Shown: one piece after another, positions 2,895-60,827 of the stretch
Layout of the letters: every line of letters starts with the position of its first letter
Position numbering within the stretch: position 1 is the stretch's first letter
Notes under the pieces: generated by a model
Seen by the model: only the letters and a program-made list of their open reading frames with translations
Databases searched by the model: none
What the model was told of the DNA's origin: nothing
Position numbers and translations under genes: made by a program
Assembly: GCA_021773335.1 (NCBI GenBank)
Contig: JAJFKG010000006.1
Location: forward strand, 99,409 to 163,408
Length of the DNA stretch: 64,000 nucleotides
Direction of reading: 5' to 3'
DNA from: Gammaproteobacteria bacterium
Lineage (GTDB): Bacteria > Pseudomonadota > Gammaproteobacteria > JAJFKG01

Positions 2895-3806
2895 ATGTTT
2901 AAACGTAACAAGCCACTTTTACAAACACTGCTTCAAGCCAAGTTTTACTTACAAAGTAACAAAGCCTGTAGAATACCAATCCGCCGCAGTGCATTAGCCG
3001 CAAGTGCTTTTTACACTTTACTTTTGCTTACTCTCTATAAAGTATTGCGAGTGACTCCTGCCTTTATTAACTATCTTTATACGCTGAGTGTTTTAATACT
3101 CATCGTATGGCCACTCTTAGCTATGTATATTTCGCGTCAACAAGCTAGCCTAAGTACGTTATTAGCGAAAGGCCTAACTAATAAACAATTGTCACACCTT
3201 GATGCCGCACGCCAAGTAAGCGATCAGCGCGGTGCCGTTTGGCAATTTACATTTTTACGTATTATAGGTGGTATAGGCGTATTTAATCTGCAAAAACCCG
3301 GTTATTTCGGTTGGTTAGTTAGCAAACGTTTTGCCTATTTACATGGCCGCTGGGCTGAGGTGCGACATTTTTTACTACCAGCACTAATGATCGAGCGGCA
3401 TAACTTTCAACAAACCACTGCAAAGCTTCAGTCATTGCTATTACAAAATCCTAGGCGCATTGCGCTCATAACCCACATCGATTATCTCTTTCGTATTGTT
3501 GGGATACTTGTCGGTCCCATCAATATGTTATGCCTCTTAGTGGGTGTTGTGCTTGGCCATTATTTCGCGACCGACTTACCTAAAGATAGTTTATTTTTTA
3601 TTGGTAATTTTCACTTTTCGTGGATACCTGTTTACGGCTTATTAGCCATTGAATTGATCTTACTTGGAATCGCTTACATCATTTTAACCATGCTACAAAC
3701 CTGCTGCGCCAGTATTGCTTATTTAGCATTATTCCATCCGCATACCTTAAGCGATAAGTACCGAAAAGCTGCACAGCAGTGGTTGGCTACGTTAAACATC
3801 ACTTAA
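2895..3806 (+). CDS. hypothetical polytopic inner-membrane protein (303 aa), no recognisable family
   Basis: Long ORF rich in hydrophobic segments. It lies 13 nt after the preceding gene in an AT-rich stretch. Confidence 0.5.
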   Translation: MFKRNKPLLQTLLQAKFYLQSNKACRIPIRRSALAASAFYTLLLLTLYKVLRVTPAFINYLYTLSVLILIVWPLLAMYISRQQASLSTLLAKGLTNKQLSHLDAARQVSDQRGAVWQFTFLRIIGGIGVFNLQKPGYFGWLVSKRFAYLHGRWAEVRHFLLPALMIERHNFQQTTAKLQSLLLQNPRRIALITHIDYLFRIVGILVGPINMLCLLVGVVLGHYFATDLPKDSLFFIGNFHFSWIPVYGLLAIELILLGIAYIILTMLQTCCASIAYLALFHPHTLSDKYRKAAQQWLATLNIT

Positions 3807-3822
3807 TACGCAACTGGGTTGC

Positions 3823-3850
3823 ATATCAAGGCTACGATTGCCTGATGCTT
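3823..3850. repeat. degenerate solo REP-like palindrome (GCATATCAAGGCTACGATTGCCTGATGC)
   Basis: An imperfect inverted repeat that carries the TATCAAGGCTAC tail shared with the REP clusters at 11996-12250 and 57130-57310. It sits just after the stop of the 2895..3806 gene. Confidence 0.4.
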
Positions 3851-10063: not shown

Positions 10064-11212
10064 ATGAATATCCAAGAACTCCTCGCCAACATGCGCCAAG
10101 CAGATGCCTCTGACTTATACCTCAGTCACGATGCCCCTCCTAGCATGAAGGTCAACGGCGTGATGCAAACGATTAATGACACCGTTATCACTGGCGAGCA
10201 AATCAAACAAATCGCCTATAGCATTATGAATGAAAAGCAAATTGCAGCATTCGAACAACGCCCCGAAATGAATCTCGCAATTAACGACGCCGATGGTGAG
10301 CGCTTTCGAGTTAATATTTTTAAACAAAAAGATCAGATTGCAATTGTGGCACGTTACGTCAAGTCAGAAATCCCTGATTATAAAGTGTTGGGTTTGCCAG
10401 AGGTGCTGACCACACTTGTGATGAAAAAGCGCGGTCTGATTTTAGTCGTTGGCGCAACCGGATCAGGTAAGTCAACGACGCTTGCCTCTTTGATTGACTT
10501 CCGCAATGCACAGAGTGCGGGACATATTATCACGGTTGAAGATCCGGTTGAGTTTGTTTATCCACATAGAAAATCTATCGTCAATCAACGTGAATTAGGC
10601 GTGGACACACAAAGTTATGATGATGCTTTAAAAAATACTTTGCGCCAAGCACCCGATGTCATTTTAATCGGTGAAATTCGTACGCGTGAAACCATGGAAC
10701 ATGCCATTGCTTTTGCTGAAACAGGTCATTTATGTCTATCGACACTGCATGCAAATAATGCCAATCAAACACTAGATCGGATTATTAACTTTTTTCCAGA
10801 AGATCGTCGGCAACAATTATTGCTTGATTTATCACTCAACTTGCGTGCGATCCTGTCTCAACGCTTAATTCCTACGTTAGATGGCAAGCGCACACTCGCT
10901 TTAGAAGTCATGCTGGTAACACCTCATATTAGCAACTTAATTCGCCGCGGTGAAGTACATGAAATTCGTGATGCGATGGAAAAATCACAAGAAGACGGTA
11001 TGCAAACTTTCGATGCACATATTATTCATTTGTGTCAAGCAGGTATGATTTCCGAAGAAGAAGCATTACGCAATGCAGACTCGCCTAACAACGTGCGCTT
11101 AAAACTGTCTCTGCAACAAAATGGTAAATCTAATGATAAAGTTAAACTATCAATGCAAGGCGGTGGCGACAAAAAAGAGGACTTGCTAGATTTTGTCAAT
11201 AGAAAAAAATAA
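10064..11212 (+). CDS. type IV pilus retraction ATPase, PilT/PilU family (382 aa, PilU-like length)
   Basis: Walker A motif GATGSGKSTT and conserved PilT-family blocks (IITVEDPVEF, ILIGEIRTRETMEHA). It stands alone, with no adjacent pilT paralog. Confidence 0.85.
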   Translation: MNIQELLANMRQADASDLYLSHDAPPSMKVNGVMQTINDTVITGEQIKQIAYSIMNEKQIAAFEQRPEMNLAINDADGERFRVNIFKQKDQIAIVARYVKSEIPDYKVLGLPEVLTTLVMKKRGLILVVGATGSGKSTTLASLIDFRNAQSAGHIITVEDPVEFVYPHRKSIVNQRELGVDTQSYDDALKNTLRQAPDVILIGEIRTRETMEHAIAFAETGHLCLSTLHANNANQTLDRIINFFPEDRRQQLLLDLSLNLRAILSQRLIPTLDGKRTLALEVMLVTPHISNLIRRGEVHEIRDAMEKSQEDGMQTFDAHIIHLCQAGMISEEEALRNADSPNNVRLKLSLQQNGKSNDKVKLSMQGGGDKKEDLLDFVNRKK

Positions 11213-11341: not shown

Positions 11342-11962
11342 ATGAATGAGAGCTCTCTACAAAAAATTGTCCTGGCAAGCAGTAACCCCGGTAAAGCACA
11401 TGAGATCCAAGCGGTATTGGCAGAGATGCCTATTGCGTTAATCTCGCAAACAGAATTTAACGTACCCGATGCGGAAGAAACTGGACTCACCTTTATTGAA
11501 AATGCCATTATTAAAGCCCGGCATGCTGCGGAGCTAACGGGCTTGCCTGCACTAGCGGATGACTCTGGGATTGCCGTCGATTACCTTGATGGTGCACCGG
11601 GGATTTATTCTGCCCGCTATGCTGGCCCTAACGCTGATATGCATGCCAACACCGCTAAACTCTTACGCGTATTAGCTAATGTGCCTGAAGAACAACGCGA
11701 TGCGCAATTTATTTGTGTCACGGTCTTACTCAAACATGCAGCCGATCCAACGCCGTTGATTTGCCAAGGCCGTTGGCATGGACGCATTATGTTTAAGCAC
11801 GCTGGTACAAATGGTTTTGGTTACGATCCGATTTTCTATGTTCCTAGCCATGCATGCAGTGCTGCACAATTAACCTCTGACGTAAAAAATAAAATCAGTC
11901 ATCGTGGCCAAGCGCTACAACAATTGAAAAATGCATTGCGCAAACAATTACACCGCGGATAG
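11342..11962 (+). CDS. rdgB: non-canonical purine NTP pyrophosphatase (dITP/XTP pyrophosphatase, Ham1 family)
   Basis: KIVLASSNPGKAHEIQAVL...ADDSGIAVDYLDGAPGIYSARYAG matches E. coli RdgB. Confidence 0.9.
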   Translation: MNESSLQKIVLASSNPGKAHEIQAVLAEMPIALISQTEFNVPDAEETGLTFIENAIIKARHAAELTGLPALADDSGIAVDYLDGAPGIYSARYAGPNADMHANTAKLLRVLANVPEEQRDAQFICVTVLLKHAADPTPLICQGRWHGRIMFKHAGTNGFGYDPIFYVPSHACSAAQLTSDVKNKISHRGQALQQLKNALRKQLHRG

Positions 11963-11995
11963 AGGTAGCTTACTGTCTCTGCGTCAAGCTCATAT

Positions 11996-12250
11996 GTAGC
12001 CTTGATAAGCGCGGGACGCGCGTCATCCGGGGAGGGTGTTTGCGATTGCGGTTCCCGGATGACGTTGCTGCGCAACTTATCCGGGCTACATCTGGCCTTG
12101 ACGCAGAAGCCGTAGCCTTGATAAGCCGCGTAGCGGCGCATCAAGGAGCAGCGTTTGCGAATACATTCCCTTGATGCGCGCCTTCGGCGCTTATCAAGGC
12201 TACATTAGCATTTGTTCATACGTAAGCCGTAGCCCGGATAAGCGCGATAC
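11996..12250. repeat. cluster of about 5 REP-like palindromic units in alternating orientation (unit roughly CCTTGATGCGCNGC...GCGCTTATCAAGGCTAC)
   Basis: Read directly from the sequence. The units lie at 11996-12030, 12050-12090, 12111-12146, 12168-12203 and 12226-12250. Each has a GC-rich inverted repeat ending in GGCTAC or GCTAC. They closely resemble E. coli REP (GCCGGATGCGGCG...CGCCTTATCCGGCCTAC). Confidence 0.8.
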
Positions 12251-12370: not shown

Positions 12371-13636
12371 ATGGATCACAGTACATTATTTATTCTCCTC
12401 GCATGTCTGTTTGGGCTTCTCATGACATGGGGTGTCGGCGCTAACGATTTAGCCAATGTCATGAGTACCACGATGGGTTCTAAGGCGATTAGTGTACGCC
12501 AAGCCATCATCATTGCGATTATCTTTGAATTTGCGGGTGCATTTCTTGCTGGCGGTCAAGTCACCAGCACTATTCGTAGTGGCATTATTGACACTAGCAG
12601 TCTCGCTAACCAACCCAACTTACTCGTGTATGGCATGTTAGCCGTCTTACTTGCGGGTAGTAGTTGGATGGCCTTAGCAAGCTATTTTGGCTTACCTGTA
12701 TCAATTACGCACACCATTATTGGCTCAATCGTTGGTTTTGGCTTGATGGTGGCAGGGATCCATGGTGTGCAATGGCATATGGTTTTGCCCATTGCATTGA
12801 GCTGGCTTACTTCCCCTTTTATTGCGGGTATCTTTGGTTTTTTACTTTTTTTAAGCGTACAGCGCTTAGTATTAATTAGTGCCCATCCTCTACGTAATGC
12901 CAAACGTTATGTCCCAGTGTGTATGTTTGTGATTTGCTTTATCTTGTCCTCAGATGCTGTTTTACGGGGCATACACCATATAACAACGGTGAATGTTTCA
13001 GATGGTCTGGGAGTTCTGCTGGCACTAATTATTGCCATCTTACTAACGATTATTGGCACGGTTGTCACTTCACGCATTAAGTTGCCTGCCGATAGCAACC
13101 GTAAAACGCAATTTTATTATGTTGAAAAAGTCTTTAGCGTGTTGATGCTCTTCACTGCCGCCGCCATGGTGTTTGCCCACGGCTCAAATGATGTGGCCAA
13201 TGCGGTTGGGCCAATGGCCGTCGTTGTCACTATGGCTCAAAGCGGAGAAAAAGCCATCTCGCAGGCAAGTGCATTACCACTATGGATTTTATTTTTAGGC
13301 TGTTCCGGCGTTGTGATTGGCTTGCTTATGTATGGCAAGAAAGTCATTACTACGGTTGGTAGCAGTATTACTGCCTTAACGCCAAGTCGTGCTTTTGCGG
13401 CCACATTTGCTGCTGCATTGACAGTCGTTGCCGCAACCGCTACAGGCATACCTGTTTCAGCAACCCAAACCCTAGTCGGGGGTGTCCTAGGCGTGGGTTT
13501 AGCGCGAGGCATAGGCGCGCTTAATTTGTATGTCATTCGCAATATTTTTATGTCTTGGATCATCACAATACCTGCTGGTGCCATCCTCACTATTATTTAT
13601 TTTAATTTATTCAAACACTTATTTGCCAGTTTATAA
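12371..13636 (+). CDS. pitA: inorganic phosphate transporter, PiT family
   Basis: 421 aa with the duplicated GANDVAN signature (GVGANDLANVMST...GSNDVANAVGP). Confidence 0.9.
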   Translation: MDHSTLFILLACLFGLLMTWGVGANDLANVMSTTMGSKAISVRQAIIIAIIFEFAGAFLAGGQVTSTIRSGIIDTSSLANQPNLLVYGMLAVLLAGSSWMALASYFGLPVSITHTIIGSIVGFGLMVAGIHGVQWHMVLPIALSWLTSPFIAGIFGFLLFLSVQRLVLISAHPLRNAKRYVPVCMFVICFILSSDAVLRGIHHITTVNVSDGLGVLLALIIAILLTIIGTVVTSRIKLPADSNRKTQFYYVEKVFSVLMLFTAAAMVFAHGSNDVANAVGPMAVVVTMAQSGEKAISQASALPLWILFLGCSGVVIGLLMYGKKVITTVGSSITALTPSRAFAATFAAALTVVAATATGIPVSATQTLVGGVLGVGLARGIGALNLYVIRNIFMSWIITIPAGAILTIIYFNLFKHLFASL

Positions 13637-16028: not shown

Positions 16029-17378
16029 GTGTCAACTTTGGAGAGTCAGCACTCCGTGTACGCAATGGAACAAACGCATTCACCTTCACAATCAAAACTC
16101 TTGCCCTGGGTTGTGGTTTTAACCGCGACACTTTTTTTCTTCTATGAATTTGTCCTTATGAATATGTTCAATGCCATCGATGGTGGCTTGGCCAGAACCT
16201 TTTCCGTCGATGCAACTAAGCTTGGATACTTATCTGCCAGCTACTTTTACGCCGATGTTATTTTCCTATTTCCCGCTGGCCTACTACTCGATCGCTTTTC
16301 AACTCGCAAACTCATCTTAGTCTCGATGGGGTTGTGTGTCGGTGCCACCGTTGGTTTTGCCTTATCACCGTTTTTTTGGATGGCAGTTAGCTTTCGCTTC
16401 TTGAGCGGTATAGGCAACGCCTTCGCCTTTGTTAGCAGTTTACGCTTAGCCGCACGTTGGTTCGAACCTCGCCACCTGGCGCTCGTGACCGGCGTTATTG
16501 TCACATTCTCTATGTTGGGTGGCGTTATTGCTCAAACCCCACTAACAGTTGCTGCGCACGCTTTAGGTTGGCGCCACGCCATTTTGGTTACCGCGGCTAT
16601 TGGTTTTCTTTTTATACTTTTGATTTGGCGCAATGTAAAAGATTATCCGAAAGGCTTTGAACAACAGTATGTGCGGGAACAACAAGACTTACACTCAATG
16701 GGCGTACTCCGCACGATCAGATTAGCTATTCGTAACCGTCAAAATTGGTGTGCTGGCATATACACTTGTTTCCTCAATTTACCAGTCGCCTTATTCGGTT
16801 CAGTGTGGGGCATACCCTATCTCGTACAAGCACACGGCTACAACATCACACAAGCTTCATATGTTACATCCATGGTATTTGCGGGCACGATTGTAGGTTC
16901 TCCCTTAGTCGGATGGTTTTCAGATTACATAGGGCGGCGGCGTTTGCCTATGTTTCTCGGTGGTATTATATCATTGGCCATAATATTGATAATCATGTAT
17001 ATGCCTAATTTAGATTTATGGTCATTGATTATTTTGTTTTTTGCGATTGGTCTTACCACAAGTTCACAAGTTATCGCTTATCCAATGATTACCGAAAGCA
17101 ATCCATCCGTACTCACTGGGGGTGCGCTGGGTTTTGGCTCTATGCTAATTATGAGTGGTTATGCTATTTTTCAACCTGTTTTTGGCAAGATGATGGACCT
17201 TTATTGGGATGGAAAAATTGTCAACCATATTCCTGTTTATTCTCCATCGGATTATCGCTTCGCACTTTGGATTATGCCTATCGGCTTTATTCTCGGTTTA
17301 GTCGCCGTACTCTTAACGCGTGAAACTCATTGCCAACCGTTAGCGCATTTGGCAGCAACTAACATGGACGAAAAATAA
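16029..17378 (+). CDS. MFS transporter, Pht (phagosomal transporter)-like subfamily, copy 1
   Basis: 12-TM MFS protein with the N-terminal FFFYEF...LGYLSASYFYAD...LDRFSTRKL block. It is paralogous to the next gene and to 24115..25374. Confidence 0.85.
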   Translation: MSTLESQHSVYAMEQTHSPSQSKLLPWVVVLTATLFFFYEFVLMNMFNAIDGGLARTFSVDATKLGYLSASYFYADVIFLFPAGLLLDRFSTRKLILVSMGLCVGATVGFALSPFFWMAVSFRFLSGIGNAFAFVSSLRLAARWFEPRHLALVTGVIVTFSMLGGVIAQTPLTVAAHALGWRHAILVTAAIGFLFILLIWRNVKDYPKGFEQQYVREQQDLHSMGVLRTIRLAIRNRQNWCAGIYTCFLNLPVALFGSVWGIPYLVQAHGYNITQASYVTSMVFAGTIVGSPLVGWFSDYIGRRRLPMFLGGIISLAIILIIMYMPNLDLWSLIILFFAIGLTTSSQVIAYPMITESNPSVLTGGALGFGSMLIMSGYAIFQPVFGKMMDLYWDGKIVNHIPVYSPSDYRFALWIMPIGFILGLVAVLLTRETHCQPLAHLAATNMDEK

Positions 17379-17380
17379 CA

Positions 17381-18700
17381 ATGATCGCCATTGAAAATAC
17401 AGCAACTCCAACGATGCAAACCGCATCATTCTCTCGTTTTAAGCCTTGGTTAATCTGTATTACTGCATCACTATTCTTCTTTTATGAATTTGTGCAACTC
17501 AATATGTTTAATGCCCTTGATACAGGTCTGATGCAAAGCTTTTCTGTTAACGCTACTGAACTAGGCAAACTATCGGCTAGCTATTTTATCGCTAATATTA
17601 TCTTCCTATTACCCGCAGGTATGCTATTGGATCGCATCTCAGCTCGTAAGCTTATTTTAACCACCATGATCATATGCGTCGGTGGGACATATATGTTTGC
17701 CTTGTCAACATCATTGCACATGGCAGAAATCGCTCGTTTTCTCACTGGTATTGGTAGTGCTTTTTGCTTCTTAAGCGTTATCCGTTTGGCCTCGCGTTGG
17801 TTACCCGCACGTCGCATGGCTTTAGCAAGTGGATTTATTGTGACAATGGGCATGCTGGGTGGCATGGTGGCACAAACGCCGATGACACTGTTAGTCAACC
17901 ATATTGGCTGGCGACATGCCTTAATGCTGAACGCAACTGTTGGTCTCCTATTCTTGATATTGATCGCTATTATCGTGCGCGACTACCCAACAACCAGCAA
18001 ACTGCAAATGGAACGCCAACGCGCCGATGCGGTAGAAATCAAAAAAATCGGTTTTTGGAAAACTGTCAAACTAGCCTTTATAAATCGCCAAAATTGGCTA
18101 TGTGGTGTTTACACTAGCTTAATGAATCTGCCTATTTTTCTCCTCGGCGCCATTTGGGGAGCACCTTATTTAACGCAAGTTAGAAATTTTAGTACAACCC
18201 AAGCTTCATATGTTACAACGATGATATTTCTTGGCACAATACTCGGCTCACCAATGATCGGTTGGGTTTCAGATCGCATGGGCCTACGACGTAAGCCCAT
18301 GACGATTGGTGCTCTGGTTACCCTCGTCTTAGTATTAATGATTTTATATTTGCCGCAGCTAAGTCTTGGCAGTTTCATGTTATTATTCTTAGCAGTGGGC
18401 TTTTTCTCAAGCACTCAAGTTATCAGCTATCCAACAGTTGCCGAAAGTAATCCCCATTTTCTTACTGCAACCTCTGTGAGTATTGTTTCCATTTCATCGA
18501 TCTCCGGGGGTGCAATTTTTCAGCCTTTTTTTGGTTGGCTAATGGATCTAAATTGGGATGGCAAAATTAACGAAGGTATGCGCATCTACTCAACAAGTAA
18601 TTTCCATTTGGCATTGACGATATTACCTATCGCTTGTTTGATTAGTTTGCTAGCAGTTATATTTATCAAAGAAACATACTGCCGTGTAAAAGAAATGTGA
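17381..18700 (+). CDS. MFS transporter, Pht-like subfamily, copy 2 (tandem paralog)
   Basis: Clear paralog of 16029..17378 ([20 protein letters not shown]...[12 protein letters not shown]...LDRISARKL). It starts 3 nt after copy 1. Confidence 0.85.
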
Positions 18701-18710
18701 GCAGCAAGCG

Positions 18711-19958
18711 ATGAAACGTGTATTTATTCTATTATTTGACTCATTTGGAATTGGTGCTGCCGATGACGCAGCTAGTTTTGGTGACCAAGGAGCCGATACC
18801 TTCGGTCATATTGCCCAATGGTGCGCACAGGGTAAGGCAAATATTGCCAATAGCAAGCGCCATGGCGTGTTACAGATTCCAAACTTAGCAAAACTCGGCT
18901 TAATTGCCGCTGCTCAACAAAGTACAAACAAAACTATAGCTGGCTATGAAAATTATAATGGATCACTGAGTGGTGCCTATGGACATGCCCAGGAAAAAAG
19001 CTTAGGCAAAGATACACCCAGCGGACATTGGGAAATCGCCGGAGTACCCGTATTGTTTGAATGGGGGTATTTCCCACCTGAGTATCCAAGTTTTCCTGAA
19101 AAATTACTCACAGAGTTGATCACCCGTGGTGAACTACCCGGCGTATTAGGTAATAAGCATGCTTCTGGCACACAAATCATTGCTGACCTCGGTGAGGAGC
19201 ATATTCAAAGTGGCAAACCTATTGTTTATACCTCTGCTGATAGCGTGTTTCAAATTGCCGCACATGAAGAGCATTTCGGTCTACAACGCTTATATGATCT
19301 ATGTAATATCGCGCGTGAATTAGTCGATGAATATAACATAGGCCGCGTTATCGCACGCCCCTTTCTTGGTAAAGCAGGTAATTTTTACCGCACGGCAAAC
19401 CGTCGTGATTTAGCTACACCGCCACCACAGCCAACGTTGTTAGACTATCTAAAACAAGCACACCATGACGTTATTTCCATTGGCAAAGTAGCCGATATCT
19501 ACGCCCACCAGGGGATTACCCAAAAATTTAAGGGCGATGGCAATATGGCATTGTTTGATGCAACTTTACAGGTACAACAAGATGCACCTGACGGTAGTTT
19601 AGTCTTTACCAATTTTGTTGACTTTGATAGCGTCTATGGCCACCGCCGCAATGTTGCGGGTTATGCACAAGCTTTAGAGGAACTTGATAGTCGTCTTCCT
19701 GAATTTATAAAAAACATGCAAGATGGTGATATCGCTTTCATTACCGCTGATCATGGCTGCGATCCAACGTGGCCAGGCTCAGATCACACGCGCGAACATA
19801 TTCCGGTATTACTCTTTGGCCCAAGCATAAAATCCCAAAATTTAGGTGCGCGTACCAGTTTTGCCGATATTGGTCAGAGCATTGCAAGCTATTTTGGTTT
19901 GGAACCATTAGCAAGCGGAACGTCCTTCATTAATACTGAGAATGTGACGCATGGATAG
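18711..19958 (+). CDS. deoB: phosphopentomutase
   Basis: [20 protein letters not shown]... and the conserved alkaline-phosphatase-superfamily metal site ([19 protein letters not shown]). Confidence 0.9.
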
Positions 19959-25433: not shown

Positions 25434-25703
25434 TTATACGCTACGCGTTAAATTTGAATGATGAATTAACCAATAAATGGCAGCGGTGAAAACGCCGCCA
25501 ATCAATGTTGCAAATGCCCACGTTACTCCTGAAACAAGGCAGGTAGTTTGCCCTACTTTAGATAATTTCCCAGAATCTTTTGCCACTGCACCTGCAAAAA
25601 TAACATGTAAAATTGCCGTGATGACTAACAGTAGCTGTGACAATGTTTCCATTTGCGAAGACAAATTTGGCCCAAAAAAATGTTGTAAACTCGCCATGTC
25701 CAT
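25434..25703 (-). CDS. small hypothetical membrane protein (89 aa, 2 predicted TM)
   Basis: ORF with two hydrophobic segments. It is tightly stacked between 25706..25966 and the MFS gene. Confidence 0.45.
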   Translation of the reverse strand: MDMASLQHFFGPNLSSQMETLSQLLLVITAILHVIFAGAVAKDSGKLSKVGQTTCLVSGVTWAFATLIGGVFTAAIYWLIHHSNLTRSV

Positions 25704-31275: not shown

Positions 31276-32532
31276 TTACGCGCCAAATATCAATTTAAGG
31301 CAATAGAAAAAGCCAATCGACAGTAATGCTCCGGCAGGAAGAGTGATCACCCAAGATAAGAAGATATTGCCAATCACATTTAATTGCAAAGCAGCAATAC
31401 CGCGCGCCATGCCTACGCCCAATATCGCCCCCACCAATGTTTGCGTCGTCGATACCGGCAAACCTGTGCCCGTTGCTAACACAACCGTACTTGCTGTCGC
31501 TAACTCAGCCGCAAAACCTCGACTTGGTGTAAGCTGGGTAATCCGCGTACCAACCGTGCTAATAACGCGGTAACCATAGGTTGCTAAACCTAGGACAATA
31601 CCGACTGCCCCCAATAATAATACCCATAGTGGAATAATGGATACAGCGGCCACTGAGCCAGCCGATCGAACGACGTGGACGATGGCAGCGAGTGGCCCGA
31701 TGGCATTAGCCACATCGTTTGAGCCATGTGCAAACGCCATCGAACAGGCGGTGAAAATCATTAAGATACCAAAGACTCTTTCCACTTCGACATAATGAAA
31801 CTCTCTATGTTTTTCAGGATCTGGTTTTACTTTACGTAATAAGAAGAAACTCAGCAGTGCAGCGCAGACAGCAAGCAAAAATGCAGCACCATAACTAAAC
31901 GCTGTAGTAAGCGCTAAGCCAATATGCTGCAAGCCCTTATTAAGGGTCACCAAGACAATAATAAAAGCAACCACAAAAACATAAATGGGTAAGTAATGCT
32001 TTGCTTTATACAGCGGATCTTCAGCTTCTAGAATCAGCCTTTGGATACTCCGAAAGATCAAGAACGCTAATACGCCAGCAATAAAAGGCGTTACCACCCA
32101 GCTCGCTAAGATGCCTGTCACTTTATGCCAATAAACCGCATGAAAACCGACATCTGCGATAGCAAAGCCAATGATTGCACCAACGATACTATGCGTTGTC
32201 GACACTGGCCACGCAAAATAAGAAGCGATCAGCAACCACACTCCCGCCGCCAATAAAGCAGCCAGCATCCCATAAACAAGTAACTGTGGATTTTGTAAGA
32301 ATACCTGTGGGTCAACAATTTTGGCGCGAATGGTATGTGTGACTTGTCCACCAGCGAGAAGAGCACCAGCAAATTCAAAAATAGCAGCAATAATAATAGC
32401 TTGCTTGATAGACAGTGCTTTTGAACCAACTGAGGTACCCATCGCATTGGCTACATCATTAGCACCAACACCCCATGCCATAAATAGGCCGAACAGACTT
32501 GCTAAACCAATATAAAGTAAGCCGTGTTCCAT
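31276..32532 (-). CDS. inorganic phosphate transporter, PiT family (second copy)
   Basis: 418 aa, about 60-65% identical by eye to 12371..13636 (GVGANDVANAMGTSVGSKALSIKQAIIIAAIFEFAGALLAGGQVT). Confidence 0.9.
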   Translation of the reverse strand: MEHGLLYIGLASLFGLFMAWGVGANDVANAMGTSVGSKALSIKQAIIIAAIFEFAGALLAGGQVTHTIRAKIVDPQVFLQNPQLLVYGMLAALLAAGVWLLIASYFAWPVSTTHSIVGAIIGFAIADVGFHAVYWHKVTGILASWVVTPFIAGVLAFLIFRSIQRLILEAEDPLYKAKHYLPIYVFVVAFIIVLVTLNKGLQHIGLALTTAFSYGAAFLLAVCAALLSFFLLRKVKPDPEKHREFHYVEVERVFGILMIFTACSMAFAHGSNDVANAIGPLAAIVHVVRSAGSVAAVSIIPLWVLLLGAVGIVLGLATYGYRVISTVGTRITQLTPSRGFAAELATASTVVLATGTGLPVSTTQTLVGAILGVGMARGIAALQLNVIGNIFLSWVITLPAGALLSIGFFYCLKLIFGA

Positions 32533-56389: not shown

Positions 56390-57121
56390 GTGCATATCCC
56401 TCGTGTCTATCAAGCTTGTGAGCTAGCTATTGGTTGTGAGTTGGCGCTTGACCAACGTGCCTGCCACCATTTAACCAATGTATTGCGCTTACGCGAAGGC
56501 GCGCCTATCATCCTATTTAATGGTCAAGGTGGCGAATACGCTGCACTATTAATCCAGGTAAAGAAAAAGAATGTCATTGTCAAAGTACGAGAATTTCATG
56601 ATAGTTCTACAGAATCCAAATTAAGTATCCATCTTGGGCAGGCCATCTCGCGCAGCGCCAAAATGGATTTTGCCTTACAAAAAGCTGTAGAACTTGGCGT
56701 TACCCAGATAACCCCATTAATCACGCAATATTGTGCTATCAAAATATCTACTCAACAACTTGAAAAGAAATACAAGCATTGGCAAGGCATAATTATAAAT
56801 GCTTGTGAACAATCCGGACGCGCACGCATTCCAATACTGCATAAGCCCTGCCGATTAACTAGCTGGAAAGGTTTTAGTAGTATTGAGCTAGGCTTATTAC
56901 TTGAACCAAAGACAACTGCAACCTTACACGATATCATTCAAAAGCCACAATCACTTGCGCTACTCATAGGGCCAGAAGGCGGTTTAAGTACGGATGAAGT
57001 AGCACTAATGAAAGCTCAAGGTGTTAAAGCAATCAGCCTAGGCCCACGTATCTTACGTACCGAGACAGCTACGGTTTGTGCTTTATCAATTCTGCAAGCA
57101 CGTTGGGGTGATTTAGCTTAG
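56390..57121 (+). CDS. rsmE: 16S rRNA (uracil1498-N3)-methyltransferase RsmE
   Basis: (M)HIPRVYQ... N-terminus and the C-terminal SPOUT knot (LLIGPEGGLSTDEV). A GTG start just after the metF stop is inferred; the ORF-track start at 56345 overlaps metF. Confidence 0.75.
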   Translation: MHIPRVYQACELAIGCELALDQRACHHLTNVLRLREGAPIILFNGQGGEYAALLIQVKKKNVIVKVREFHDSSTESKLSIHLGQAISRSAKMDFALQKAVELGVTQITPLITQYCAIKISTQQLEKKYKHWQGIIINACEQSGRARIPILHKPCRLTSWKGFSSIELGLLLEPKTTATLHDIIQKPQSLALLIGPEGGLSTDEVALMKAQGVKAISLGPRILRTETATVCALSILQARWGDLA

Positions 57122-57129
57122 CAAAAAAA

Positions 57130-57310
57130 CCTTGATGCGCTGCTGCGCAGCTTATCAAGGCTACAAAAGCGCGCTACCACGTAGCCTTGATAAGCGCCGA
57201 AGGCGCGCATCAAGGGCCTGAGTTGGCAAATGCTGATCCTTGATGCGCCGCTCCGCGGCTTATCAAGGCTACCATATGAGCTTGGCGCAGAGACCGTAGG
57301 CTACATAAGA
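57130..57310. repeat. second cluster of REP-like palindromic units (3 full units plus 1 partial) of the same family as 11996-12250
   Basis: The units lie at 57130-57164, 57181-57215 (inverted) and 57238-57272, with a partial GTAGGCTAC at 57296-57310. The unit at 57238-57272 differs by 1 nt from the reverse complement of 12111-12146. Confidence 0.8.
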
Positions 57311-57339
57311 AGCAAAGCCACAGCGTATTAAACTTAAAA

Positions 57340-58296
57340 CTATTCCAATTCTTTTGCATAAGTTGCGATCGGTGGCAAGGTTTTAACGCTACCTTGCTGT
57401 TGTAAATACGCCGCAAACTTAGCGTAACGCTGTTTATCTAATACCGCTGGTCGCAGAGCAAAACGCGGTAAAGTTGCAAACCAAGCACGTTTATTCAATT
57501 CATTGTTAAGTTCCGGGTGCTGTTTAGCAAATACCTTCCATGTCGCCCGTGGGTGATTAACAAGATACAGAGTGCCTGCTTGCAAAGCTTGTAAAAAGCG
57601 CGGCAACCTTGGATCACCAATTTCTTTTTTATTCGTGACGATGATCAACTCATCATACACGGGCATACCACTTTCTTCGGGGAAAAATGCTCTCCCTGGC
57701 TTACCTGCTAATGCCACTTGTGTCATTTCAAAGTTACGCATCATGCCGGTAACGGCATCAACACGACCAGCCAATAGTGCCTGAGTCAAATTATAATGCA
57801 CATTAACTAGCGTTACATCTTGCCTAGTAAGCCTTGCGCGTTTTAGCATGGCATCAAGCATAATTGCATCGACACCGCCTGTACTATAACCAATACGCTT
57901 ACCTCTTAAATCTTTAAGTGACTTTATTGGTCCATCTTTCAGTACAACTAAACAATTTAACGGTGTCGCGATCAACGTGCCTATGCGCACTAATGGCAAC
58001 CCTTGCGCTATGGCTAACATAAATTGTGGCTGGTAAGTAACCGCTACATCAGTTTTGCCGGCTGCAACTAACTTGAGGGGATCAGCTGGATCCGCTGGCG
58101 CAATAAATTTAACTGGCACACCGGCTTTAGCAAAATAACCTTGCTGCTGAGCAACAAACAAAGGTGCATGATCGGGATTTACAAACCAATCTAGCATAAC
58201 CGTTAAGGGCTGCTGCTTTGTTGCGGCAAAGACAAATGTGCTAAGCAGCAACGTACCGACGAATATTAATTTCAAGCTTTGTTTCATTATCTTCAT
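57340..58296 (-). CDS. ABC transporter periplasmic substrate-binding protein, NMT1/THI5-like (ThiY-like)
   Basis: Signal peptide plus NMT1/THI5-family SBP sequence. It is the last gene of the riboswitch-controlled operon. Confidence 0.75.
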   Translation of the reverse strand: MKIMKQSLKLIFVGTLLLSTFVFAATKQQPLTVMLDWFVNPDHAPLFVAQQQGYFAKAGVPVKFIAPADPADPLKLVAAGKTDVAVTYQPQFMLAIAQGLPLVRIGTLIATPLNCLVVLKDGPIKSLKDLRGKRIGYSTGGVDAIMLDAMLKRARLTRQDVTLVNVHYNLTQALLAGRVDAVTGMMRNFEMTQVALAGKPGRAFFPEESGMPVYDELIIVTNKKEIGDPRLPRFLQALQAGTLYLVNHPRATWKVFAKQHPELNNELNKRAWFATLPRFALRPAVLDKQRYAKFAAYLQQQGSVKTLPPIATYAKELE

Positions 58297-59217: not shown

Positions 59218-59977
59218 TACGTAAGCACTCCAACAATTGTGCCTGCAAATGTAATAATTCAGTATCTTGGATATTACGAGGCTTTTCGCCGTTTAAGTGC
59301 AAAGGAGCTTTCAGCTTGGCCGGTCGTCCCTTCATGATCAACACATTATCAGCAAGGCGCAGTGCTTCTAATGGATCATGTGTCACTAGTAATACGGTTT
59401 TGTCTTTGAGTAAACGTGCAGCAATTTCTTGCAAGCGTAAGCGAGTGATTGCATCTAATTTTGAAAATGGTTCATCCATAAGTACGATAGGGCGATCTTC
59501 AATTAGGGTGCGTACTAAAGCGACTCGTTGCCGCATCCCCCCTGAGAGTGCTGCTGGTCGGCGCTCAATAACATCTCGCAAACCGACTTCCGCTAACAAA
59601 CTACGCGCCCTGCGTGCTATCGAGCTTTTATTAGCTCCCCGCAAGCTTGCACCTAATAAGACATTGTCAAACACCGACAACCAAGGTAGCAGCAAGTCAT
59701 CCTGTCCCATGTAAGCAAGATTCTCACGTACAATCCAATCGGCATCGCAGCTAATTGTAGCCTGCATCTGCGTCTGCCTTTGCTTAGGAATAATATCAGC
59801 AAGCAAATAGAGTAAACTACTTTTGCCGACACCGCTGGGTCCCAGCAGACAACTCCATTGCCCTAGCGGGATGCTACAATCGAGGTTCGAAAAGACGGCT
59901 TGCTGACCATAACGTAATGTCGCATTACGGATATGCAAGGCAGGGCACGGCTGCGTATCATTTACTTGGTAAATCAT
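59210..59977 (-). CDS. ABC transporter ATP-binding protein (ThiZ-like)
   Basis: Walker A GPSGVGKSS, the ABC signature LSGGMRQRV, and Walker B LLMDEPFSKLD. It overlaps the permease by 8 nt. Confidence 0.85.
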   Translation of the reverse strand: MIYQVNDTQPCPALHIRNATLRYGQQAVFSNLDCSIPLGQWSCLLGPSGVGKSSLLYLLADIIPKQRQTQMQATISCDADWIVRENLAYMGQDDLLLPWLSVFDNVLLGASLRGANKSSIARRARSLLAEVGLRDVIERRPAALSGGMRQRVALVRTLIEDRPIVLMDEPFSKLDAITRLRLQEIAARLLKDKTVLLVTHDPLEALRLADNVLIMKGRPAKLKAPLHLNGEKPRNIQDTELLHLQAQLLECLRNG

Positions 59978-59982
59978 GTCAC

Positions 59983-60073
59983 GCTTTCCTACGTCGGTGT
60001 TAACCGTATCAGGTTCAAAGGGTCGTTTTACGCGAATCTTGCCGTAAAACCTCTCAGCCGCAGCTCCCCTAGG
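59983..60073 (-). promoter_or_regulatory. TPP (thiamine pyrophosphate) riboswitch / THI element
   Basis: The minus-strand RNA reads GGGGAGCUGCGGCUGAGAGG...ACGACCCUUUGAACCUGAUACGGUUAACACCGACGUAGGAAAGCGUGACAUG. It matches the THI-box consensus block for block (GGGG.GC..GCUGAGA...ACCC.UUGAACCUGAUC.GGUUAAUACC.GCGUAGGGAA). The AGGAAAG at its 3' end serves as the SD for the ATPase gene, 6 nt before the ATG. Confidence 0.85.
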
Positions 60074-60599
60074 GTCAAGCCCGCTATTCTACAGCAGTAC
60101 TGCAAAAGTCCAAGTTTTTAACAAAAATATATTCCCGCCAACTACTACATTGCCCATTTTGTTTGTAAGCAATATCTCAACATCAAGTAAGCCATATCAG
60201 CTATTTATCAGTGCCACATCTGACAACATTTATTCGAAAAATTGTATCCATTTGTTTTAATTAAATATTAATATAGATTTCTTGGCTCTTTACTGTATCA
60301 AACTTAAGCAAGACAAATTTTGACCCTTGTGAAAAAAATAAGACCTGGTAAATTCACGCCCACAACCACAGTATAGCGACGAATTTTATACCCCAATATT
60401 ATTAGTCACGGCATAGCGTTAGGTAGCGGACAGGGAAGTCCGCCTTTATATTTGCCAGCAACTAACTGTAACTGTAGGCAGTATTGAGATGTACGGGTTG
60501 TCATGCTGGCAAGCAATGTGCATAAAAACAGTCAGCAATAGGGACGCCCCCTCATTTTAAGTGCTTTCGTTGGGAAATTTGAGTACATTTCTCAATAAC

Positions 60600-60706
60600 A
60601 GTTTGCAAGGAAGCGATTGTAGACATGGATGTCTAGCAAGGATGCAATTGAGGGCAAGGAGTGCCCACAAGGCCTGGGAAGGGCGGGCTCAACCCGCCCT
60701 TTCTTT
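60600..60706 (+). ncRNA. CsrA/RsmA-sequestering small RNA of the RsmY/RsmZ/CsrB class (5' end uncertain)
   Basis: There are four stem-loops with GGA in the loop: gcAAGGAAgc (60605-60614), agacaUGGAugucu (60621-60634), gcAAGGAugc (60636-60645) and ggcAAGGAgugcc (60654-60666). The second matches the CsrA SELEX consensus RUACARGGAUGU. The RNA ends in the terminator GGGCGGGC-UCAA-CCCGCCC plus UUUCUUUUU (60681-60709). The palindrome TTGAG-N7-CTCAA at 60579-60595 lies upstream. No ORF is present. Confidence 0.7.
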
Positions 60707-60827
60707 TTATGCTCACCCCCGCTCGTAAATCCGCTTATTGACCATACTAAGTTGCTATTACTTTAACAAAACGGCAAAATAATACCTCTTCATTGTGAGT
60801 ACCATCTCACACACAACAGGTTATTTA

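Follow-up and report, generated by a model that had tools for sequence, protein, structure and literature searches.

The 64,000-nt window analysed here, positions 99,409 to 163,408 of contig JAJFKG010000006.1 from a Gammaproteobacteria bacterium, carries nine copies of a 35-36 nt palindrome, five of them in one cluster (cluster 1), three in a second (cluster 2) and one as a solo copy. These repeats are very probably repetitive extragenic palindromes (REPs) of the Escherichia coli type, arranged in arrays like bacterial interspersed mosaic elements (BIMEs), and belong to the REPs of group 2 REPtrons, the GTAG-3 superfamily, with spreading by a REP-associated tyrosine transposase (RAYT) as the likely mechanism. 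The host is a divergent, lone, deep lineage of the Legionellales with 44% GC, and the family is a new example of a repeat type already known, from a branch of the Legionellales that is otherwise unsampled, and no novel class of element. With up to three mismatches allowed, the 15-mer GCTTATCAAGGCTAC has 11 matches in the window against 1.56 expected from 100 dinucleotide-preserving shuffles, none of which (0/100) reached 11. Nine of the 11 matches are the REP copies; the other two, at 19746 and 61384, have three mismatches each and lie at chance level. The same families and inverted pairs were recovered independently by a repeat finder. When each copy is signed by the strand that reads 5'-GTAG, the order is + - + - + in cluster 1 and - + - in cluster 2, a strict alternation in each. 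An initial annotation of this DNA had proposed at least eight palindromes in alternating orientation, in two clusters plus a degenerate solo copy, which sequence reading and the motif count (n = 9) bear out.

Read along the GTAG strand, all seven full-length copies adopt one layout, consisting of the GTAG, a 7-bp lower stem, an AA-GC internal loop, a 5-bp upper stem and a G-N-A triloop. The GTAG, or CTAC on the other strand, directly abuts the stem in all nine window copies and in a tenth copy situated outside the window. The lower stem is CCTTGAT/ATCAAGG in five full-length copies, CCCGGAT/ATCCGGG in one and a hybrid of both in the remaining one; the two types, hereafter the CAAGG and CCGGG subtypes, differ at two positions, both of which are compensated. 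As in the y REP of E. coli, the internal loop occupies positions 12-13, and its AA faces GC in five copies and GTC in two. Five upper-stem sequences occur among the seven full-length copies (GCGCC, GCCGC, GCTGC, GTTGC, and GCGCG) and a sixth in the degenerate solo copy, each perfectly paired with its partner despite the sequence variation. Altogether, variation affects six of the 12 stem pairs, without any loss of pairing. The triloop takes the forms GAA, GTA, GCA, and GGA, always G-N-A.

When the GTAG strands are folded as single-stranded DNA, the expected structure with a 2x2 internal loop is obtained at -10.8 to -12.1 kcal/mol (z-scores relative to shuffles, -3.2 to -4.7), and similar folds are predicted for the complementary strands. 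C-GNA-G triloops are known as unusually stable DNA mini-hairpins, and a loop of this type is present on the GTAG strand only.

The REPs of E. coli group 2 are imperfect palindromes of 30-40 nt preceded by GTAG, with an AA-GC mismatch at positions 12-13/26-27, and binding and cleavage by the E. coli enzyme TnpA-REP/RayT require both the GTAG and the AA-GC bulge in vitro; heterologous group 2 REPs are also processed by E. coli TnpA-REP (PMC8266576, PMC3333891). Among the bases contacted by E. coli RayT are T11, C27 in the bulge, and G32 in the lower stem (PMC8266576). The equivalents of T11 and of the bulge C are conserved in all intact window copies; at the position corresponding to G32, the CCGGG subtype has G and the CAAGG subtype has A. 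In a global alignment to the z2 REP located beside E. coli rayT, the window REPs share 27-28 of 37 positions, a value above that of all 500 shuffles. A BLAST search with cluster 1 as the query, covering 5,426 complete E. coli genomes, gave matches in 199, all intergenic and the best at E 4e-5, and four more matches were found on E. coli and Klebsiella records of a plasmid collection; the E. coli/Klebsiella intergenic BIME matches range from E 4e-5 to 6e-3. In these alignments, an E. coli y-type inverted REP (iREP) tail, its linker, and a z REP align in that order with a CCGGG-type tail, linker, and CAAGG-type REP of the window. The E. coli z REP between prpB and prpC, together with its head-to-head linker (GTT..CGAATACA), aligns with copy B of cluster 1 and its linker, and copy F of the same cluster aligns with the E. 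coli y iREP tail. By sequence comparison, the CCGGG and CAAGG subtypes thus mirror the E. coli y/z pair. The term enterobacterial-style, under which the repeats had been annotated, is justified by the common y/z register and by these significant matches to E. coli BIMEs, linkers included.

Cluster 1 begins 3 nt past the stop codon of rdgB with a terminal module (11965-11995) composed of a stub, GTAGCTTAC, and a tail-to-tail-type linker, TGTCTCTGCGTCAAGCTCATAT; this module is 91% complementary to its counterpart in cluster 2 (57273-57304), and the repeat finder relates it to the linker at 12090-12111. Copy G (11996-12031, + strand, 36 nt) is a chimera in which a CAAGG-type GTAG side is joined to a CCGGG-type far side, and its lower stem contains one mismatch and one wobble pair, with a weak fold of -6.4 kcal/mol. 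A 22-nt head-to-head linker, the GGAGGGTGTTTGCGATTGCGGTT region (12032-12053), separates it from copy F (12054-12089, - strand, 36 nt), a CCGGG-subtype REP resembling the E. coli y type (...CTTATCCGGGCTAC), with a predicted fold of -10.8 kcal/mol and a z-score of -4.7. The tail-to-tail linker that follows, ATCTGGCCTTGACGCAGAAGCC (12090-12111), aligns in part to an E. coli BIME linker and leads to copy B (12112-12146, + strand, 35 nt), a CAAGG-subtype, E. coli z-like REP with a predicted fold of -11.9 kcal/mol. Copy B is the left arm of a 92-nt unit. The head-to-head linker of this unit, AGCAGCGTTTGCGAATACATTC (12147-12168), has the GTTTGCGA core in common with 12032-12053 and is identical at 15 of 22 positions to the linker of a second such unit in cluster 2; its right arm is copy A (12169-12203, - strand, 35 nt, the iREP on the + strand), whose sequence GTAGCCTTGATAAGCGCCGAAGGCGCGCATCAAGG has a predicted fold of -12.1 kcal/mol and a z-score of -4.5. 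The cluster closes with a tail-to-tail linker (12204-12228) that has AAGCC at its end and was reported as a direct repeat by the repeat finder, and with a truncated REP of the CCGGG subtype (12229-~12249, + strand, GTAGCCCGGATAAGCGCG...), a hairpin without its 3' half.

Cluster 2 starts 8 nt past the stop codon of rsmE with copy C (57130-57164, - strand, 35 nt), followed by a 16-nt tail-to-tail linker (57165-57180) read from the sequence. The second 92-nt REP-linker-iREP unit (57181-57272), inverted relative to 12112-12203, is formed by copy D (57181-57215, GTAG on the + strand) and copy E (57238-57272, GTAG on the - strand), joined by the linker at 57216-57237. The terminal module of this cluster (57273-57304) is a tail-to-tail-type linker plus a stub, GTAGGCTAC, the mirror of 11965-11995. 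The degenerate solo REP (3801-3835, - strand) overlaps the stop codon of the open reading frame (ORF) 2895-3806. Its upper stem is intact (GCAAC/GTTGC) and its lower stem has decayed, and the predicted fold of -3.7 kcal/mol is no better than that of shuffles.

The two 92-nt units, situated 45 kb apart in inverse orientation, are identical at 84 of 92 positions when 12112-12203 is compared with the reverse complement of 57181-57272. The similarity ends exactly at the outer GTAG and CTAC, and the flanks (GAAGCC/ATTAGC and CATATG/GTGGTA) are unrelated, with no target-site duplication at either copy. Of the eight differences, the 22-nt linker accounts for seven (binomial P = 2.8e-4) and a loop for one, so that the 70 nt of REP arms differ at a single base; the hairpin arms therefore appear constrained or homogenised while the spacer drifts. 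The initial annotation had stated that copies 40 kb apart differ by one nucleotide, which holds for 12112-12146 against 57238-57272 and fails for 12169-12203 against 57181-57215, which are identical at 35/35 positions. It had also taken this near-identity as a sign of recent spread. The near-identity itself stands, but recent spread is weakened as its sole reading because the differences are concentrated in the linker. The layout of the units, two inverted REPs with a short spacer, is that of a REPIN (a REP doublet forming a hairpin), documented here in two copies, and suggests that the doublet is replicated as one unit.

The linkers form families of their own. The 22-nt linkers in head-to-head position are mutually related, CTTGRCGCAGARRC is common to the three tail-to-tail modules at 11965-11995, 12090-12111, and 57273-57304, and each cluster finishes with a like module and a GTARGCTAC stub, facing rdgB in cluster 1 and an ATP-binding cassette (ABC) transporter operon in cluster 2. 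These conserved linker modules were not part of the initial annotation. Such a mosaic of REP types and linker motifs matches the definition of a BIME, and the BIME-like pairing in opposite orientation annotated before is thereby seen in both clusters as alternating arrays with recurring linker modules.

In the mechanism that we propose, a Y1/HUH transposase of the E. coli RayT group would bind the folded, single-stranded hairpin of the GTAG strand, reading the GTAG and the bulge, and would cut nearby and rejoin strands, so that REP/BIME units spread and are reshuffled into the 3' flanks of genes. Such cutting and rejoining could yield the REP-linker-iREP units, hybrids like the one at 11996-12031, truncated ends like that at 12229-12249, and the GTARGCTAC stubs, and local amplification could then build the arrays. 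The hairpins would be transcribed as the 3' ends of rdgB, rsmE, the thiamine-related ABC operon, and ORF 2895-3806. In the transcripts, they would most plausibly serve as barriers to 3' exonucleases or as weak transcription attenuators, for example of read-through from rdgB into pitA, and the REPs would most plausibly also be sites for DNA-binding proteins, as in E. coli.

From the substrate features, we infer a link to a RAYT. Several results weigh against the interpretation of the repeats as an E. coli-type REP family spread by a RAYT. A tblastn search of the 64 kb window with E. coli RayT gave nothing even at E 10, and in a Pfam scan of the small ORFs of the window no RAYT was found, these ORFs having other assignments or none. 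The documented loci number only four, the lower-stem base contacted by E. coli RayT (G32) is an A in the main subtype, and the hairpins are not classical terminators since they lack T-tracts. The absence of a RAYT gene from 64 kb says little, because the gene is normally single-copy. Searched with the same query, the sequences of loci L001-L082 contained only a decayed copy, in Legionella worsleiensis, and a protein database search with E. coli RayT returned, as its best 120 homologues, proteins exclusively from Enterobacteriaceae with at least 65% identity. A 724-aa concatenation of REP-derived peptides matched nothing in the protein database at E <= 10, the two spurious REP ORFs of the window have no exact entry in the protein collection, and the 81-aa ORF 11899-12144 and the 68-aa ORF 57210-57416 are repeat artefacts.

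The lack of a RAYT gene in the window would also be accounted for if the repeats were fossils of an ancestral or transferred REPtron whose RAYT has since been lost, the copies now being kept only by hairpin selection or gene conversion. In E. coli, REPs are documented to have been retained after loss of the RAYT, as in B2 strains (PMC3333891), and the RAYT of L. worsleiensis is itself decayed. The window also contains truncated, chimeric, and decayed solo copies, and the concentration of differences in the linker suggests maintenance instead of fresh copying. Against this, two copies 45 kb apart are identical at 35/35 positions and the 70 nt of unit arms differ at one base, and the usual single-copy state of a RAYT leaves its absence from 64 kb little informative here as well; we regard the fossil state as unlikely. 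The sharp ends of the 92-nt unit, its long terminal inverted repeats, its occurrence in both orientations, and its predicted folding as single-stranded DNA into one long hairpin of -33 kcal/mol would also suit a MITE (a miniature transposable element with inverted repeats) moved by a conventional DDE transposase instead of a Y1 enzyme. However, neither copy of the unit has a target-site duplication, single REPs and odd-numbered arrays occur and not pairs alone, and there is no transposase gene in the window. The ends of the unit are the GTAG/CTAC tag and its arms, which are homologous to E. coli REPs, keep the AA/GC bulge specific to RAYT substrates (PMC8266576). An origin as a MITE is thus very improbable, and this identity was rejected for want of a target duplication.

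A further alternative, that the palindromes are convergent, locally evolved terminators or regulatory hairpins that belong to no dispersed family, draws on the position of all loci at gene 3' ends and on the stability of the hairpins. It fails to account for the conservation, across unrelated loci, of linkers and of unpaired positions (the GTAG and the AA/GC loop), for one pair of identical copies, or for a like sequence in another organism (L084, described below), and T-tracts do not follow the stems. Identity at non-structural positions brings this alternative close to refutation, and we consider it extremely unlikely. The identity of the hairpins as intrinsic terminators was rejected because no T-run is present, and integron attC sites are unsupported, as neither a cassette array nor a gene for an integrase was noted in those parts of the window that were examined. 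E. coli-type REPs in BIME-like arrays therefore remain our preferred interpretation, and beyond the window we infer a genome-wide dispersed family that would be mobilised by a resident RAYT; REP families of this type typically exceed 100 copies per genome.

The placement of the host in the Legionellales is reflected by PitA. Its closest relatives in 185,579 species genomes are encoded in Legionellales metagenome-assembled genomes (64% identity), followed by many Legionella species (55-60%), and in a collection of 5.8 billion proteins none is closer than 65% apart from the exact protein; outside one NCBI contig, the exact PitA occurs only in one sequencing run, SRR15505517. The strict pattern CCTTGATGCG-N9-13-CTTATCAAGGCTAC has no match in the 185,579 species-representative genomes, a set without the host's own genome or close relatives of it, the window motif is absent from 1.36 Mb of related Legionellales loci (80 loci examined), and a scan of viral contigs with the REP pattern gave no match. 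Its absence from the species genomes and the related loci indicates that the family is lineage-restricted, which is usual for REP families. With a slightly looser pattern, three matches were obtained in JGI metagenomes, of which only the one on contig L084 (Ga0351890_10038) is a real REP pair. The other two (L083 and L085) were set aside as chance, one being apparently inside a coding sequence and one in high-GC sequence. The L084 pair (124-239) is head-to-head, with identical 11-nt and 15-nt ends and a 45-nt loop insertion in one arm, and shows that the REP family is present in at least one other organism. The L084 contig has 37% GC and no detectable similarity to the window, and two paralogous F-box/ankyrin-repeat proteins adjoin its REP pair. 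Proteins of this kind are effector-like and typical of amoeba-associated Legionellales.

The tenth copy lies 3.8 kb outside the window, beyond its left edge (10253-10279 of the short-read contig L087), downstream of a peroxiredoxin gene, and brings the count to 10 copies at four loci in ~68 kb. It reads GCC-GTAG-CCTTGAT-AA-GCACC-GTA-GGTGC-G... and thus has a new, compensated upper stem. The contig reaches 3.86 kb past the left window edge and ends inside this copy. Another short-read contig (Logan, L001) starts inside cluster 1, 12 nt before the truncated REP 12229-12249, and yet another stops within the outermost REP of cluster 2. Three of the six ends of the SRR15505517 short-read contigs are thus located inside REP clusters, with REP sequence making up less than 1% of the region, as expected of a multi-copy repeat in de Bruijn assembly. 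REPs therefore break short-read assemblies of this host, and their masking is advisable in the calling of small ORFs. Directly adjoining the tenth copy, at 10140-10213 of L087 (~3.7 kb left of the window start), another perfect palindrome, GTCCCACCCC-TCT-GGGGTGGGAC, is present in three to four copies spaced by a short TTAACCCTC; neither the window nor any other fetched locus contains it, and it may be a second repeat family of the host genome.

All four REP loci are extragenic and located immediately 3' of genes, the solo copy overlapping only a stop codon. Cluster 1 is placed 3' of rdgB (Ham1 family, + strand, ending at 11962) and 5' of pitA (PHO4 family, + strand, starting at 12371), which are co-directional. 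At cluster 2 the junction is convergent, between rsmE (+ strand, ending at 57121) and an NMT1/THI5-like ABC binding-protein gene (- strand, ending at 57340), and the cluster lies 36 nt from the end of the three-gene ABC operon. The earlier assignment of both clusters to convergent or terminator sites is consequently correct for the convergent cluster 2 and not for cluster 1, where rdgB and pitA form a tandem junction. No T-tract follows the REP stems and no REP hairpin was called as an intrinsic terminator, and an Rfam scan detected no RNA family at either cluster. As an empty-site comparison, the rdgB-pitA adjacency was sought in the 80 related loci and is conserved in none. E. coli REPs at up to ~15 nt from a stop codon are reported to lower expression of the upstream gene, and the REP 8 nt past the rsmE stop codon may likewise lower that of rsmE.

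The ABC operon, whose 3' end abuts cluster 2, is headed by a thiamine pyrophosphate (TPP) riboswitch (Rfam RF00059, 63.5 bits) at 59969-60080 on the - strand and encodes an ATPase (59977-59210), a permease (59217-58393), and the NMT1/THI5-like binding protein (58296-57340). Its product is probably a transporter of thiamine or a thiamine precursor. Between the riboswitch and a DUF2387 gene, ~700 nt (60081-60794) contain no ORF of at least 80 aa, an ORF-free gap unusually long for so densely coded a window. A second pitA-like gene (31276-32532, - strand) lies inverted, 19 kb from the first (12371-13636, + strand), with 72-77% nucleotide similarity across the 5' region of the pair. Two paralogous genes for transporters of the major facilitator superfamily (MFS) stand in tandem at 16029-17378 and 17381-18700 (+ strand) with a repeat spacing of 1349 nt, and the short-read contig L001 ends within this duplication. 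The ORF preceding the solo REP (2895-3806, + strand, 303 aa, membrane-like) and ORF 25434-25703 (- strand, 89 aa) have no Pfam match.

REP/BIME arrays and their RAYTs are well described in Enterobacteriaceae, Pseudomonas, Stenotrophomonas, and Coxiella, and in this respect the repeats of the window are ordinary. It is mildly surprising that they follow the enterobacterial pattern so closely, in register, recognition features, the y/z pair, and parts of the linkers, and are unrelated to the Coxiella REP. This patchy distribution bears on the question of whether REPtrons move horizontally. As a tentative possibility, which we consider doubtful, an E. coli-type REP/BIME system with y- and z-like REPs, related linkers, and a group 2 RayT would have been exchanged horizontally between an enterobacterial lineage and host-associated Legionellales, and would now be spreading among unrelated Legionellales; as part of the same joint and equally doubtful proposal, that spread would embrace the 44% GC lineage of the window and the 37% GC organism of L084 with its F-box/ankyrin proteins. 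The constant C-GNA-G mini-hairpin loop would then be an adaptation that stabilises the single-stranded substrate on the GTAG strand. Were such an exchange true, REPtrons would be less strictly vertical ('domesticated') than is now held. With this family, a heterologous substrate from nature is also at hand for tests of which REP features are really read by the E. coli enzyme.

REPINs of Pseudomonas fluorescens resemble the 92-nt units in that an inverted REP pair with a short spacer is the repeated unit, with boundaries at the outer REP ends and arms more conserved than the spacer (Bertels and Rainey 2011, PMC3116915). However, the Pseudomonas REPINs belong to group 3 systems with other REP sequences, whereas the units of the window, documented as full doublets in two copies, sit in longer BIME-like arrays with tail-to-tail linkers.

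In the case of Coxiella burnetii, a member of the order Legionellales like the host of the window, the repeats are GTAG-tagged palindromes and have been placed with the E. coli REPs in one GTAG-3 group of patchy distribution (Di Nocera et al. 2013, PMC3733652), and a RAYT, YP_001425023, is listed by Nunvar et al. 2010 (PMC2817692). The Coxiella REP of Nunvar's table (PMC2817692) nevertheless shows no relation to those of the window beyond the GTAG, its alignment being at chance level, and it consists of a perfect 8-bp stem and a large loop, the AA/GC bulge being absent. In Legionella worsleiensis, we found a decayed RAYT-like gene (NZ_LNZC01000020; L009 20560-21200) that shares 38% identity with E. 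coli RayT across 98 aa; its frames are interrupted, and GTAG palindromes lie on its flanks (GTAGCCTGGGTG.AGGCCTGAAAGGCCGTAACCCGGGTT). These palindromes adjoin the remnant of a Y1 transposase and share with the window REPs the GTAG, a 7-bp lower stem, an internal loop, and an upper stem, but their stems are CCTGGGT.../...ACCCGGG and their loop has 4 nt. A literature search on REP/RAYT systems in Legionella found none; the Coxiella RAYT and the decayed L. worsleiensis gene show that such systems are not new to the Legionellales.

Compared with E. coli, the host of the window is a deep Legionellales lineage with 44% GC, and no cognate RAYT was seen for its REPs in the 64 kb. The lower stems are CCTTGAT or CCCGGAT in the window instead of GCCGGAT or GCCTGAT, and the constant G-N-A triloop replaces loops of 4-9 nt. 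Furthermore, the two REPs of a pair in the window have loops of the same length, whereas loops of different length are combined in E. coli dimers, and no L linker with its integration host factor (IHF) site was recognised in the window. Both systems have a GTAG tag on palindromes of 35-36 nt, a 7-bp lower stem ending in GAT/ATC, an AA/GC mismatch in the same register (A12 A13 / G C), and a GC-rich upper stem with compensating variation. Both maintain two coexisting subtypes, y (..ATCCGG.) and z (..ATCA.G.), in REP-linker-iREP pairs and longer alternating arrays that are extragenic and situated at gene 3' ends. The density is also similar, with ~9 copies in the window against ~8 per 64 kb in E. 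coli K-12, which carries 584 REPs in 4.64 Mb (PMC3333891).

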